IMG/VR virus record: IMGVR_UViG_3300023174_000050
Location: 64,001 to 128,000 of that record
DNA length: 64,000 nt
Strand: one strand, 5' to 3'
Source of the DNA: a virus
Below the pieces are notes generated by a model, which saw nothing but the letters and a program-made list of their open reading frames with translations, did not search any database and was not told the origin of the DNA. Each line of letters begins with the position of its first letter. Within the stretch, counting starts at the first letter, position 1. Shown piece after piece: positions 268 through 6,544 of the stretch. The translations under genes and the position numbers were made by a program.

Positions 268-801
268 ATGAGTACATTAAAAGAATTAACTGCAGAAAAA
301 CATACAGAAGCAGAAACACAACCTTTTCTAAAATCTATTTTTGAAGGCAATGTCGATAAAGATAAGTATACCTCATATCTTTATCAATTACTTTATGTAT
401 ATCAAGTATTAGAATTTTATGGCGACAATCATAAATTATTTGCAGGTATAGAAGATATAAAACGATCAAAACAAATGGAATTAGATTGGATATCTTTGAA
501 AGGCGAAAAGGGCGAACCTGAACATATATTTCATTCTACTCAAAAGTATGTTAATTATATACATAGCATAAAAGATGATAAAAATAAACTAATGGCCCAT
601 ATCTATGTTAGACATATGGGGGATTTATTTGGGGGACAAATGCTAGCGAAATTGTTACCTGGACCAAATAATATGTTTAAGTTTAATGATATTCCTAAAT
701 TAGTAAAAGGTGTAAGAGAAAAGATTGATGTATCTCTTGCAGAAGAAGCTAACATAGCATTTGGTCATAATATTAATATGATAAAGGATTTTAATGATTG
801 A
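268..801 (+). CDS. Heme oxygenase (Ho1/HemO-like)
   Basis: Proximal His motif HTEAE near the N-terminus; distal helix YVRHMGDLFGGQ; 177 aa. Confidence 0.9.
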   Translation: MSTLKELTAEKHTEAETQPFLKSIFEGNVDKDKYTSYLYQLLYVYQVLEFYGDNHKLFAGIEDIKRSKQMELDWISLKGEKGEPEHIFHSTQKYVNYIHSIKDDKNKLMAHIYVRHMGDLFGGQMLAKLLPGPNNMFKFNDIPKLVKGVREKIDVSLAEEANIAFGHNINMIKDFND

Positions 802-1465
802 CGTATTTCCTCAGGCAAATAAACTTGCACAAAGTATAATTGATAAATTTGGACTTTATAAAGTAGAACAAATCGATCCAAGGTATACGCATAACGATGT
901 AGACTTTACTTGGGATAATTATATTTGGTCAGATAAAAAATTCCGAAGAGCTCACATAGAAATAGTGGATGCATCTGAGACAAAAAAGATGTGGGTTATG
1001 CATATGTGTATTTTCCCTCACTATAATTGCCCAGATCCTATATTTGGGTTTGATATAGTATGCGGCAAAAACAAAATTACTGGGGCATTCCACGATTTTT
1101 CTAAAGTCGGAGATTCTCAAATGTATACATGGTATAATAGAAAAATGGAAACATTGAAGTGGTCCAAAGGCAGAGAATTGCCAGATTGGGCAAAAAGAAT
1201 CTTTAGTCCGCAGATGTTAGCTGCTGGCAATATTCAAACACAAGAAGAATTTGATCAACTTAAGAATACGGTTATTGACAATCTTAACTATTACCTATAT
1301 AATGTAGGAGTACCTTATGCCTCAGCCGACTATTCGGAACAGCATGATTACTATTGTAGGAATCAAAAATTGAATCCCCATACCCCGGCAATGATGGTTA
1401 ACTTTGGAGTAGAAAAACAAACATTTATGGACTTTATGGATGATGTGTTGTTTCAGGAAAAATGA
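794..1465 (+). CDS. Ferredoxin-dependent bilin reductase (PcyA/PcyX-like)
   Basis: RRAHIEIVD, MHMCIFP..DPIFGFDIV and GAFHDFS, RELPDWAKRIFS and a C-terminal Q..NPHT motif; overlaps the heme oxygenase stop. Confidence 0.85.
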   Translation: MIDVFPQANKLAQSIIDKFGLYKVEQIDPRYTHNDVDFTWDNYIWSDKKFRRAHIEIVDASETKKMWVMHMCIFPHYNCPDPIFGFDIVCGKNKITGAFHDFSKVGDSQMYTWYNRKMETLKWSKGRELPDWAKRIFSPQMLAAGNIQTQEEFDQLKNTVIDNLNYYLYNVGVPYASADYSEQHDYYCRNQKLNPHTPAMMVNFGVEKQTFMDFMDDVLFQEK

Positions 1466-2764: not shown

Positions 2765-3703
2765 ATGGCATTCACATCACTATCAGATCTTAGAAAATCC
2801 CGCGGAGGATTTGACTCTTTAATGAAAGAGGTCGAAAAGATCGCAAATCCCCAAGCAGAATCTCGAGGCGCTGATGATCGCTTCTGGTCTCCAGAAGTAG
2901 ATAAAGCAGGCAACGGTTATGCTGTTATTCGATTTTTACCTGCACCTAAAGGCGAAGACTTGCCTTGGGTTAGAGTTTGGAATCATGGATTTCAAGGTCC
3001 AGGCGGTAAATGGTACATCGAAAATTCTTTAACTTCTATAGGTAAAGCAGATCCAGTTTCTGAACACAACACAGAACTATGGAACTCTGGCTCGGAAGCA
3101 AATAAGGAAATTGCTCGTAAACAAAAGCGCAAGCTAAGTTATACAACTAATATTTTAATTGTTAAAGACCCAGCTCATCCAGAGAATGAAGGTAAAGTAT
3201 TTCTTTATAAATTTGGTAAGAAGATCTTCGATAAAATTAAAGACATGGCTGAGCCACAATTCCAAGATGAAAAACCAATTAATGTGTTTGATTTTTGGGA
3301 AGGCGCAAACTTCAAGCTAAAGATTCGTCAGGTTGAAGGTTATCGTAATTATGACAAATCTGAATTTGAGGCTGCTAGCTCCATTTCAGAAAAAGATGAA
3401 GATATTGAAGCTATCTGGAGCAAGCAACATTCTTTGACACAGTTCTTGGATGAGAAACATTTTAAATCTTATGACGAATTGAAGAAAAAATTCGAAATGG
3501 TTATGGGTTTAAGTGGCAATTCTGTACCAGGTAAGCGCGCGGAAGAAATTGATCTAGATAATCAATTACCTACATTAAAAGCAGTTAATTCTACGCCTAT
3601 GCCAAATACAGAAAAGGCGCCTGTTAAAGCGCCAGCTAAAGAAGTAGATTTTGATGATGACGATGAGTCTTTATCCTACTTTGCCAAATTAGCTGAAGAT
3701 TAA
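2765..3703 (+). CDS. gp32: Single-stranded DNA-binding protein
   Basis: DDRFWSPEVDKAGNGYAVIRFLPAP, HGFQGPGGKWYIENSLT, GKKIFDKI, GANFKLKIR, NYDKSEF; acidic C-terminal tail. Confidence 0.97.
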   Translation: MAFTSLSDLRKSRGGFDSLMKEVEKIANPQAESRGADDRFWSPEVDKAGNGYAVIRFLPAPKGEDLPWVRVWNHGFQGPGGKWYIENSLTSIGKADPVSEHNTELWNSGSEANKEIARKQKRKLSYTTNILIVKDPAHPENEGKVFLYKFGKKIFDKIKDMAEPQFQDEKPINVFDFWEGANFKLKIRQVEGYRNYDKSEFEAASSISEKDEDIEAIWSKQHSLTQFLDEKHFKSYDELKKKFEMVMGLSGNSVPGKRAEEIDLDNQLPTLKAVNSTPMPNTEKAPVKAPAKEVDFDDDDESLSYFAKLAED

Positions 3704-3722
3704 AAATCTTTAGCTCAATTAG

Positions 3723-3746
3723 ACCCCGCCTAGTGCGGGGTTTTTT
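3723..3746 (+). terminator. Rho-independent terminator after gp32
   Basis: ACCCCGC-ctagt-GCGGGGT followed by a T run, between convergent genes. Confidence 0.85.
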
Positions 3747-3750
3747 AATG

Positions 3751-5661
3751 TTATGCAAATATCCTACCGTTATATCTAAAGAAATCATTTATAGCAGTAT
3801 TGGTATTAACAGGCGAACCTGATACAAAAGACATTCCCGAACCAGACCCGGAACTTGCCACAGTAGTATTATTATTTACTATAATCGGTGCAGCTGAAAT
3901 AGCAGTATTTTCTGTTAAAGCAGCATTTTCATTATCAGCAGTTTTTAGAATAGATGCCATTGGCATTGTATTTAAATTTTGAGAAACTTTTTCAGATTTT
4001 GGTTTTATATTTTCTGATTTTGATTCTTCTTTTTTATTTAAATTATAGTTTGGATTTCTTTTAATAAAATCTTGATTTTTTTCCAACCAATCTAATATTT
4101 TACTATTTTTAGATTCTCCTAAATAATTAGGGTCCTTAATATTAATGTCCTTATAACGTTGTTCTGCCCAGTCAGTTATTTCTTTTGGTAGTTTTTCTGC
4201 TCTTTGTACTCTTTGTACTCTTTTATACTCTTCTTCTTCGCCTGCAGCTGCCCCACCTCGACCTCCGCGCGGTTTTTGATTATCTAATTTTTCTTTATTT
4301 GGGACTTCTGTATTAATAGGTTTTCCGGAATTATTCAACGCATCAAGTTTAGTTGTCATTTCTTTTTCGAAAGACACAGAAGATTGTCCTTTTTTATTCA
4401 AGTAATCTAGATATACTGCTTCTACATTCTTTTGCACATTAGGTGTTAATACATTGCCCTTATCATCAGCAAGCGAACCATCGGCTTGTTTTTTATAATC
4501 TTTTCCGTTATAAGGAACAACCTCACCCTCAGGAACTTCTGCATATTTTTGTTTATTAGTTTCTAATCTACCTTCCGCTTGTCTACTGCCCTTTTGTTTT
4601 GCTGCTGCTTCTTTTTCAGCTTTTTCTTTTTTACGCATTCTATCTAAATCTTCTGGATCATCCATTGTAGACAATAATACAGGGGCAGCTAGTAATCCCA
4701 ATGAAGCACCTAATACTCTAGATGCAGCACCCGCTAAAGGTAAAGCGCCCGCCGCAGGAGCTGTACTTGATGGTACACGTTTTGGTGTTGGTTGATTTTT
4801 ATTGCCAGGGAGTTGTACTGGCGAAGTTCCAGGTACTCCTACGGGCATACGAGAATTTGCTTGATTATTATTTAATATTTCTGATAAAGTTTCAACCGCA
4901 TATTCTATATTATCTGTAAATGTTTTTCCTAATTTATCTAGCGGAGGGATTAATCTAGAACTTACTTCTAACCCAATAGATTTTGAGAATTTTACTATAT
5001 CCAAAGGCTCATTATTGTTAACTGTCTTTGTATTTAAAGGAGTTCTTTTATTTGGATTCTCAGAAGCAGGTTTTTCATTTGTTTTAACATCATTATCAGA
5101 ATCATTTGATGTTTTAATTATATTAATATCATCTTGTATTAAAGAAACACTAGTTAATGTTTTATCAGATAATGTTTTTAGGGATTTAAGATTTTCTGTT
5201 AGTTGTTCCTGATACTTATTTGTAACAACCATAGACTCCAGTATATTTTTTATTATATCCCTGTCATCGGTATTTTTAGATTTTTTATCTTTAGCTTTAT
5301 CATTCTTTGTATCGACCGGTTTAGTCGCTTCAGACATTTTTACTGTGTTTGGTTTTTCATTGCTTGTTTGGCTTGCAAAATATTCTCGAATATCACCCAT
5401 CGCTTTGCCAAATACTTCTGCGGAGTAATCTTTAAATTTTTCCAGATAATCATCAGAACTTTTTTTATTCCGTTCGACTCTAGGACTTGGAGTTTGTTTT
5501 TTACTTACCTTCTCATCATTTCTTCGTTGTCTGGTTATTTGATTGGTTAGACTCTGTAAAACTTTAGTTTGATATGATAACGTTTCGCCCTGTTGGTGCA
5601 AGGTTTCGAGTATCAGTCTTTCACTAGCTGACATAGCTTGAGGATTTGTCGGTAAGCTCAT
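3751..5661 (-). CDS. Tape-measure / baseplate hub (gp29-like) protein
   Basis: 636 aa, low-complexity and helical with one hydrophobic stretch (LPLAGAASRVLGASLGLLAAPVLL); C-terminal APIIVNNNTTV motif; lies downstream of gp26/gp51-like genes. Confidence 0.55.
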   Translation of the reverse strand: MSLPTNPQAMSASERLILETLHQQGETLSYQTKVLQSLTNQITRQRRNDEKVSKKQTPSPRVERNKKSSDDYLEKFKDYSAEVFGKAMGDIREYFASQTSNEKPNTVKMSEATKPVDTKNDKAKDKKSKNTDDRDIIKNILESMVVTNKYQEQLTENLKSLKTLSDKTLTSVSLIQDDINIIKTSNDSDNDVKTNEKPASENPNKRTPLNTKTVNNNEPLDIVKFSKSIGLEVSSRLIPPLDKLGKTFTDNIEYAVETLSEILNNNQANSRMPVGVPGTSPVQLPGNKNQPTPKRVPSSTAPAAGALPLAGAASRVLGASLGLLAAPVLLSTMDDPEDLDRMRKKEKAEKEAAAKQKGSRQAEGRLETNKQKYAEVPEGEVVPYNGKDYKKQADGSLADDKGNVLTPNVQKNVEAVYLDYLNKKGQSSVSFEKEMTTKLDALNNSGKPINTEVPNKEKLDNQKPRGGRGGAAAGEEEEYKRVQRVQRAEKLPKEITDWAEQRYKDINIKDPNYLGESKNSKILDWLEKNQDFIKRNPNYNLNKKEESKSENIKPKSEKVSQNLNTMPMASILKTADNENAALTENTAISAAPIIVNNNTTVASSGSGSGMSFVSGSPVNTNTAINDFFRYNGRIFA

Positions 5662-5861
5662 TCCTGGTTATTCCTTATTTGTCTTTGTTTCTTTCTTTCA
5701 TTTTCTTCATTTATATGATTAATAAGCATTGCCACATAAACATCTCTTTCCCATGGAATCATATTTTCTATTTCTGATAAAGAATAATTATGATTTTTTA
5801 CTAATGAAAAATTTAATTTAAAAAAATTATGAAGCCCCTCATGGGAAAGGGTTATACGAAA
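5658..5861 (-). CDS. gp51-like baseplate hub assembly ORF without its own start codon (candidate -1 frameshift extension of the gp26-like ORF)
   Basis: Manual translation: FRITLSHEGLHNFFKLNFSLVKNHNYSLSEIENMIPWERDVYVAMLINHINEENERKKQRQIRNNQE*. The HxYSLxEIENMIPWERxxY motif is the gp51-like signature; TGA overlaps the ATG at 5661. Missing from the ORF track. Confidence 0.75.
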   Translation of the reverse strand, partial: FRITLSHEGLHNFFKLNFSLVKNHNYSLSEIENMIPWERDVYVAMLINHINEENERKKQRQIRNNQE

Positions 5862-5864
5862 AAA
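5835..5864 (-). other. Candidate programmed -1 ribosomal frameshift site
   Basis: T TTT TTC heptamer (5864-5858) in the gp26-like frame, 6-nt spacer, then hairpin CCCUU-UCCCAUG-AGGGG (5851-5835). Confidence 0.65.
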
Positions 5865-6544
5865 TTTTGTAGACCTTCCAAATGCATTTCATTATGTTCT
5901 CCGCATACTTCGCAATCTTTTTCTATATGCTGAACTAATTTTGGCATTGTTAAAAAGAAATTTTCTATAAGTTCAAATTGACTTTTAGAAAAAGAATTTA
6001 CAAATTCCGACAATTCTTCTTTAGTATATTCTTCATATATAGCATCTTCAGTATAAATAGATTTTATACAAGAACTTAAAAGATCTACAATTTTATCAGA
6101 TTTAAAATTTTGGTAAATATTAATCATTTCTTCAAATTTTGGATATCTCATTTCGACAATAATTTTATCAGTAATACTAATTTTTGTACTGTGTGCTGGA
6201 TCTTTTTCTACAGCAGCCTTTGTCAAATCTAATTCAAAAGGAATCTTATTATCACAACTATTGCAATCCAATGTTAATTCTACTACTTCAGAAATAGATC
6301 TAGCTCGCAAATTTAAGAATATATATTCTATATCAAAATTGGATAATGTATTCATTTTTAATTTATTGAATGTGCATGCATCAACTAACTCTGTTACAAT
6401 ACGATTAACCTCATCTGCACCTGATTCTAAAGTAGTTAATAATACTTTATATTCTTTAACCAAAAAAGGCCTAAATGTTATTTTTTCGTCGGTTGATGGT
6501 AAAATCAATTCATAAGTCGGTGTTTCTAATATAGGTAAAGTCAT
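5852..6544 (-). CDS. gp26: Baseplate hub subunit / tail assembly chaperone-like protein (gp26-like)
   Basis: LPILETPTYELILPS..ITFRPFLVKEYKVLL, DIEYIFLNLRARSISE, two CxxC pairs, FFLTMPKL, C-terminal EGLQNFF. Confidence 0.75.
   Translation of the reverse strand: MTLPILETPTYELILPSTDEKITFRPFLVKEYKVLLTTLESGADEVNRIVTELVDACTFNKLKMNTLSNFDIEYIFLNLRARSISEVVELTLDCNSCDNKIPFELDLTKAAVEKDPAHSTKISITDKIIVEMRYPKFEEMINIYQNFKSDKIVDLLSSCIKSIYTEDAIYEEYTKEELSEFVNSFSKSQFELIENFFLTMPKLVQHIEKDCEVCGEHNEMHLEGLQNFFV

Follow-up and report, generated by a model that had tools for sequence, protein, structure and literature searches.

A tail assembly chaperone gene of an uncultured T4-like phage, probably decoded in two ways through a -1 ribosomal frameshift

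Background

How does a T4-like phage express a gp51-like reading frame that lies directly behind a gp26-like one, in the -1 frame and with no usable start of its own? This question is raised by a minus-strand locus in the IMG/VR virus record IMGVR_UViG_3300023174_000050, of which we analysed positions 64,001 to 128,000; this whole stretch of 64,000 nucleotides (nt) is referred to as the window, and positions are counted from its first letter. We conclude, with a probability of roughly 80%, that the locus is a single tail assembly chaperone (TAC) gene which is decoded in two ways through a -1 ribosomal frameshift at the slippery heptamer T_TTT_TTC. We observed the sequence anatomy around this heptamer, its conservation among relatives, a switch of the coding frame at the heptamer and an architecture in common with gp51 of phage T4; by comparison among relatives, the case for recoding is strong.

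In T4, gp26 (208 amino acids, aa) and gp51 (249 aa) are listed as hub assembly chaperones (Leiman et al. 2010, Table 2; PMC3004832), gp51 being essential, without an assigned function and not present in the particle (PMC3004832). The G and GT products of phage lambda, and a conserved -1 frameshift of TAC genes, have been described by Levin et al. 1993 and by Xu, Hendrix and Duda 2004 (both as cited in PMC2147016). According to two later papers that cite it (PMC10885494, PMC12846349), the study of Vladimirov, Gautam and Davidson (Virology 2022;566:9-15) identified gp26 and gp51 as TAC-N and TAC-NC of T4-like phages. The first of these, the PRFect paper, adds on the same authority that some T4-like phages possess a short and a longer fused chaperone gene instead of frameshifting (PMC10885494), and the second, on phage Adele, refers in its section 3.8.3 to poly-T slip sequences in the TAC-N genes of T4-like phages, again citing the 2022 study (PMC12846349). 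A preliminary description of the window had regarded frameshifting as undescribed for T4-like gp26/gp51 genes, which does not hold in view of these accounts. Because the 2022 paper, as they report it, had already identified the chaperone pair, the core idea is published and the phage studied here is a new example and no new principle.

Results and discussion

Anatomy of the junction

The features of the locus, all on the minus strand, are the following.

6544..5852, minus: gp26-like open reading frame (ORF; TAC-N), 230 aa, 0 frame, ending in ...GLQNFFV and the stop (AAT TTT TTC GTA TAA)
5864..5858, minus: slippery heptamer T_TTT_TTC, in the X_XXY_YYZ phase of the 0 frame
5854..5852, minus: 0-frame stop TAA, one codon past the heptamer, as read from the sequence
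5858..5658, minus: -1 extension of 66 sense codons plus TGA, gp51-like tail by its match to phrog_634
5660..5658, minus: TGA of the -1 extension, overlapping the ATG (5661..5659) of the 636-aa ORF
5661..3751, minus: 636-aa ORF, putative tape measure (gp29 analogue) by position and composition
5879..5874, minus: weak Shine-Dalgarno (SD)-like GGAAGG, 9 nt 5' of the heptamer, candidate stimulator with a presumed role
5851..5835, minus: small 3' hairpin of 5 bp (CCCUU / AGGGG or GAGGG), beginning 6 nt past the heptamer

On the 5' side of the heptamer, a TGA at 5891..5889 closes the -1 frame, whose first start codon is the ATG at 5762..5760, codon 33 of the extension, which lies inside the conserved motif EIENM; no ATG, GTG or TTG stands before it in the open frame and no SD-like sequence was seen ahead of it. 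A slip at the heptamer would yield a product of 229 + 66 = 295 aa with the junction peptide DCEVCGEHNEMHLEGLQNFFR (also ITLSHEGLHNFFK). The preliminary description had listed the same end of the gp26-like ORF with the heptamer in phase, the open -1 frame with its stop overlapping the next ATG, the first ATG inside EIENM without a usable upstream start or ribosome binding site, products of 230 and 295 aa and a hairpin 6 nt past the heptamer, and we recovered each of these.

Taken alone, the -1 extension matches phrog_634, the 'baseplate hub assembly catalyst' (gp51), with E 9.2e-26 and an alignment that begins at residue 2, and also positions 236-276 of the 282 positions of phrog_150. When it was used as a tblastn query, matches were obtained in 567 phage records, aligned from residue 1 or 2. 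Folded apart from the 230-aa part with AlphaFold2, the extension is modelled as three helices with a predicted local distance difference test score (pLDDT) of 82.

Conservation of the heptamer

Three scans of IMG/VR and the phages in GenBank supplied the related loci. The 248 loci sampled, 246 of which contain a usable match and three of these leave their contig before the gene end, fall into the phage's own clade (53-97% protein identity), the P-SSM2 clade and a diverse set with 28-40% identity to the protein of Sinorhizobium phage phiM7; an IMG/VR scan with the protein of Vibrio phage D481 found no relatives. An in-phase T_TTT_TTY is present in 242 of the 243 loci which hold the gene end, as TTTTTTC in 226 and TTTTTTT in 16, and is invariant, beyond what chance would give, across relatives at 28-97% protein identity in the three clades. 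Behind every one of the 242 heptamers the -1 frame encodes a gp51-like peptide, which measures 59-73 aa where it lies fully within the contig. The conserved heptamer at the FF end and the conserved -1 relation, which the preliminary description had suggested to look for in homologs, are thus both found.

The sole exception (locus L071, IMGVR_UViG_3300008116_002483, at about position 2090) has a deletion of about 190 nt across the site, by which the heptamer is lost together with the 3' end of the gp26-like gene and the first half of the extension. This deletion led us to reject L071 as a natural in-frame fusion; either the contig is misassembled or the genome is defective.

To a non-redundant set of 84 junctions, less than 90% identical in DNA, the following values refer. 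The first six positions of the heptamer show zero diversity, flanking sites show 0.34-0.71, and synonymous sites close by are saturated. The two phenylalanines are preceded by AAT, AGT, GAT, TCT, GCT, ACT or CAT, a codon that encodes N, S, D, A, T or H and ends in T in 84/84 (background 77%), while the first Phe codon is TTT in all 84 as well (background 74%). Since the codon before FF ends in T whatever residue it encodes, selection acts on the bases and not on the residues.

Switch of the coding frame

In the 0 frame before the heptamer, the first, second and third codon positions have site diversities of 0.48, 0.36 and 0.61; over 25 codons downstream, the corresponding values in the -1 frame are 0.38, 0.24 and 0.57. 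The heptamer is therefore the exact point at which the coding constraint passes to the -1 frame. In agreement with this, the peptide R-[IL]-x-L-S-H-[ED]-x-L is kept from the first post-slip codon onwards, with synonymous third-position changes. In the relatives, between 0 and 42 nt separate the heptamer from the 0-frame stop, in steps (0, 3, 6, 9, 24 and 42 nt) that differ from lineage to lineage. As this distance varies and the heptamer is fixed, the short form would end differently among the phages.

Comparison with gp26 and gp51 of T4-type phages

In the Straboviridae, gp26 (about 201-208 aa) consists of the PF12322 domain alone, and gp51 (about 249 aa) carries the same domain (residues 2-198, E 1.7e-45) and a tail of about 50 residues in one frame. 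This tail is homologous to the -1 extension of the phage. Moreover, the predicted transframe products of the phage, P-SSM2, Mosig, DSL-LC03, Vibrio D481, phiM7 and Cr30 align with gp51 without a gap across the junction; the gp51 alignment set comprised ten Straboviridae sequences, of which cultured phages provided six and IMG/VR contigs four, the fusion being predicted.

The homologous site of T4-type gp51 contains the heptamer in 0/8 sequences, and its T run never exceeds five. In Aeromonas phage Aes508, Tequatrovirus teqskov, Acj9, JS98, Pm5461 and VAC66, 26 and 51 are two distinct genes with divergent transcription, whereas a single PF12322 gene is found in the whole 190-kb genome of our phage. 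On the sequences compared, two-gene phages are without the slip signal and one-gene phages have it as a predicted recoding site. In a maximum likelihood tree, the PF12322 domains fell into three clean groups which meet at one node, with support values of 100/100 for the Straboviridae gp51 N-domains, 89/80 for Straboviridae gp26 and 98/91 for the one-gene forms; being without an outgroup, this tree does not tell which of the two states, two genes or one gene, is the ancestral one.

The phage and T4 accordingly share the protein family (PF12322), the same C-terminal tail in the long form and the same module, with gp2, gp4, gp48/54-like, gp53 and gp5 genes near the chaperone gene. They differ in that T4 has two divergent paralogous genes without a slippery site and the phage one gene with a recoding site, and in that gene 51 is followed by 27, 28 and 29 in T4 whereas in the phage the long ORF follows directly. 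With its poly-T slip site in the TAC-N gene, the phage resembles those T4-like phages for which such sites are reported after the 2022 study (PMC12846349).

The fusion of the gp26-like and gp51-like frames that the preliminary description had proposed is thus supported by the conserved heptamer, the conserved frame relation and coding from the first post-slip codon, and is backed further by colinearity with the in-frame T4-type gp51 and by the lack of a conserved start, which is treated below.

Candidate stimulators and possible slippage of the RNA polymerase

The 45 nt past the heptamer fold with -7.8 kcal/mol in RNAfold. Compared with synonymous recodings, which keep the -1 peptide and the codon usage of the gene, the segment with the hairpin of the phage is more stable than any of them (z -3.9, 0/150 as stable). 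The same comparison over the 84 junctions gave a mean z of -2.0 for the segment just 3' of the heptamer and -0.33 to +0.12 for four control segments. In most relatives, structure begins 4-8 nt downstream of the heptamer. Two biased codons were found in addition: a Leu at position 4 of the extension is CTT, CTC or CTG in 55/56 cases, although TTA and TTG together make up 54% of the Leu codons of these genes, and a conserved Glu five codons upstream is GAG in 56/70 non-redundant relatives against a background of 23%. The latter preference places GGAGG about 10 nt before the heptamer in most relatives, where by analogy it would act as a stimulator.

These elements recall the -1 signal of Escherichia coli dnaX, which combines an SD-like element, A_AAA_AAG and a 3' stem-loop; in signals of this type, the SD-like element is expected 10-14 nt upstream of the heptamer and a stable stem-loop 5-9 nt downstream. 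The likeness lies, at the level of the family, in the GGAGG about 10 nt upstream in most relatives and in the structure 4-8 nt downstream; the heptamer and tRNA are those for Phe here and for Lys in dnaX, the elements are weak in the phage itself, and the shifted product is the shorter one in dnaX and the longer one in the phage. It is a tentative suggestion, less likely than not to hold, that a three-part dnaX-like cassette (GGAGG about 10 nt upstream, U_UUU_UUY and a lineage-specific 3' structure) is under selection at synonymous sites. Equally tentative is its scope, which might extend to the one-gene T4-like TACs of Kyanoviridae-like, Vibrio, Sinorhizobium and Caulobacter phages.

The same evidence bears on transcriptional slippage, in which the RNA polymerase adds one U on the T6 run in some transcripts and the same 295-aa fusion results. 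The conserved element is indeed homopolymeric, T6 or (in 16/242 loci) T7, and the T ahead of TTT TTC lengthens the run. However, 105 exact T6 runs occur on both strands of the 64-kb window, at 33% GC, and as such runs are common in a genome of this composition T6 alone would hardly be an efficient slippage site. No run in the 242 loci is longer than T7, and known transcriptional slippage sites are mostly longer than this. The enriched structure lies downstream and the SD-like element about 10 nt upstream, which is typical of stimulators of ribosomal -1 frameshifting such as those of dnaX, whereas nascent-RNA hairpins act upstream of the slippage run; the positions of these elements therefore fit a ribosomal slip better than slippage of the polymerase, and we consider the latter unlikely.

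Starts in the -1 frame and the two-gene alternative

If the gp51-like frame were a gene of its own, translated from the ATG at 5762 or from a non-canonical start, its product would have 34-66 residues. Such a separate gene is implied by the current GenBank annotations of relatives, and both an ATG at codon 3 of the extension in about 30% of the non-redundant relatives (for example P-SSM2, where it is the annotated gp51 start) and the stop/start overlap with the next gene, a sign of tight translational packing, are in line with it. However, other relatives have a Leu where this Met at codon 3 stands, and the place of the first start codon (ATG, GTG or TTG) in the -1 ORF varies from -19 to +32 codons relative to the slip site, with no conserved start. 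In the phage itself the first start is codon 33, in the most conserved motif and without an SD sequence, and the 32 codons before it are kept as protein with synonymous variation, the coding conservation upstream of the first Met that the preliminary description had suggested to look for. Homologs with a proper start and no conserved slippery site, named there as speaking against a frameshift, are not what we found: the starts are scattered and the heptamer is kept. In addition, the tail of T4-type gp51 is fused to a gp26-like domain. Taken together, two independently translated genes are very unlikely.

A sequencing artefact or pseudogene, that is, a 295-aa gene split by a one-base error in the T run, can be dismissed in spite of the error-proneness of homopolymers in some sequencing chemistries, as the same -1 layout occurs in 242 independent assemblies, among them the finished genomes of the cultured P-SSM2, Mosig, phiM7, Cr30 and Vibrio D481, and none of the one-gene phages found has an in-frame version.

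Fold of the gp26-like protein

The 230-aa ORF is a member of PF12322 (T4_baseplate; E 5.9e-58, 196.6 bits against a cut-off of 24.5, residues 9-229), as are 38/38 aligned relatives, and matches the baseplate hub family phrog_150 with E 1.8e-61. From the alignment of 38 sequences AlphaFold2 produced a model with a pLDDT of 87 and a predicted template modelling score of 0.81. We compared this model with 48,161 PDB chains using VIA-align, which is independent of Foldseek. The top matches, all to residues 1-93, were four phage or phage-like proteins: 3fgx (Z 7.8, root-mean-square deviation 3.8 A, 85 aligned residues), the TAC of HK97 2ob9 (residues 1-89; Z 7.1, 4.2 A, 83 aligned), YqbN of Bacillus subtilis 3klu (Z 6.7, 4.3 A, 85 aligned) and 5ir0 (Z 5.2); the next row had Z 4.2. 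The Z scores are modest and the identity of the top matches is in favour, so that the model supports an N-terminal domain with a TAC fold. The analogy to G/GT drawn in the preliminary description gains support from the match to the HK97 protein.

Other searches gave no such link. Sequence searches of the gp26-like protein against the PDB found no match, nor did Foldseek with the 230-aa model against the PDB at E <=0.001, and a search of BFVD with the model returned only baseplate-hub, gp26 or gp51-type proteins of many myoviruses and no named chaperone. Alignment of the 38-sequence profile to lambda gpG with hhalign gave a probability of 0.2% and no sequence similarity, and when the 38 members were compared with Pfam, allowing E values up to 5, no Phage_TAC family appeared and all that came up were weak zinc-ribbon matches.

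These zinc-ribbon matches recur among the relatives. The second half of the gp26-like protein contains two CxxC pairs, C94/C97 (CNSC) and C211/C214 (CEVC), and the model shows a weak alignment of residues 85-225 with the zinc-ribbon proteins ZPR1, NrdR and ZitP (Z 3.3-3.4). The cysteines are lost in some lineages, for example in P-SSM2. To our knowledge a zinc-binding module in a tail chaperone has not been described.

Likeness to lambda and the downstream ORF

As in lambda, a short and a long form would have a common N-terminal part, the heptamer of the predicted -1 slip is of the X_XXY_YYZ type and lies shortly before the short ORF ends, the gene stands just upstream of the presumed tape measure gene, and the N-terminal part has a TAC-like predicted fold (2ob9, Z 7.1). 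In contrast to lambda, the shared part has 230 aa instead of 140 and a second domain with the two CxxC pairs, and the added part has 66 aa instead of about 140. The E/E+E' genes of phage P2, reportedly described by Christie and colleagues in 2002, are a further case of TAC frameshifting. The slip in P2 is reported to take place on TTTTTTG.

The 636-aa ORF downstream has a hydrophobic central segment rich in Ala, Gly and Leu. It gave no match in Pfam, PHROGs, NCBIfam, the PDB or by tblastn against 50,697 phage records, and BLASTP likewise found no match to the ORFs that occupy the corresponding position in P-SSM2, Mosig and Vibrio D481. Weak matches of positional counterparts to tape-measure PHROGs were seen in Cr30 (E 3.5e-9), Vibrio D481 (1.1e-6) and phiM7 (1.8e-5). 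As no homologue was detected in any library tried, the name 'tape measure', which the preliminary description had also used for this ORF, follows from its position and composition, and we retain it as a putative tape measure gene.

Proposed decoding and points against it

According to the frameshift model, most ribosomes would read the gp26-like ORF to its TAA and produce the 230-aa TAC-N, the equivalent of T4 gp26. A minority would slip back by one base, the two tRNA-Phe on UUU UUC of U_UUU_UUC re-pairing on UUU UUU, and would read 66 codons in the -1 frame to give the 295-aa TAC-NC, the equivalent of T4 gp51, with an added part that is predicted to form a small three-helix domain. The slip is probably aided by the 3' RNA structure, the nearby 0-frame stop and, in most relatives, the SD-like GGAGG about 10 nt upstream. 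By analogy to lambda G/GT and T4 gp26/gp51, both forms may act on the tape-measure/hub complex in tail initiation and be absent from the virion. We infer the ribosomal nature of the slip, its efficiency and the roles of both products.

Several points weigh against this model. The two products are, for the phage and its relatives, predictions from sequence, and the T run is also compatible with the insertion of one U by the RNA polymerase, which would lead to the same protein. Because the 84 junctions share descent, the significance of the counts is overstated. The hairpin of the phage is unremarkable when compared with dinucleotide shuffles (z -0.9, 37/200 fold as well) and the SD-like element of the phage itself, GAA GGT (GGAAGG), is weak. 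RNAalifold found no consensus structure over the 84 junctions; as there is no single conserved structure, the lineages appear to use different small hairpins. Finally, fold Z scores of 5-8 are in the middling range by the tool's own scale.

The phage and its surrounding genes

The virus record comprises 190 kb of an uncultured T4-like phage with a completeness rating of 100% and 33% GC. The phage is absent from the GenBank phage set, where Pelagibacter phage Mosig comes nearest to it with a protein identity of about 40%. Among cultured phages, its closest relatives belong to the Kyanoviridae, namely Mosig and phages of Prochlorococcus and Synechococcus. The neighbouring genes are of T4 type (a gp48/54-like tube initiator, gp2, gp4, gp48, gp53, gp5, gp32 and gp59).

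Between the 636-aa ORF and a convergent gp32-like gene (2765..3703, plus strand), terminator-like hairpins are located at 3721-3743 (plus) and 3616-3633 (minus), which resemble the ends of two convergent transcription units. An ORF of 223 aa at 794-1465 (plus) matches phrog_7278, 'ferredoxin oxidoreductase' of the auxiliary metabolic gene category (E 1.1e-19); it may be a host-takeover gene of the bilin reductase type, which would hint at the host.

Annotation of the gp51-like frame

In P-SSM2 and Mosig, gp51 is annotated with differing starts. For the Synechococcus phages DSL-LC03, S-WAM1 and ACG-2014d, the GenBank/RefSeq records have no annotation of the gp51-like frame and show a gap behind the baseplate hub gene. 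Such unannotated gaps lie at 2515-2682 in locus L003, 1508-1697 in L088 and 1508-1694 in L089. A joined coding sequence was found in none of the GenBank/RefSeq records inspected.

Conclusions

Relative to the 2022 study as it is cited, the detail of the suggested cassette and the strict rule that one gene goes with the heptamer and two genes go without it may be additions. For annotation, our analysis means that the gp51-like frame, which in hundreds of genomes of T4-like cyanophages, pelagiphages and vibriophages in GenBank and IMG/VR is either missing from the annotation or entered as a small gene of its own whose start is arbitrary, would be the second part of a chaperone gene. The comparison of one-gene and two-gene phages clearly presents genes 26 and 51 of T4 as the split, two-gene version of the single, presumably frameshifted gene of its distant relatives, which supports the reading of gp26 and gp51 as the missing tail assembly chaperones of T4.

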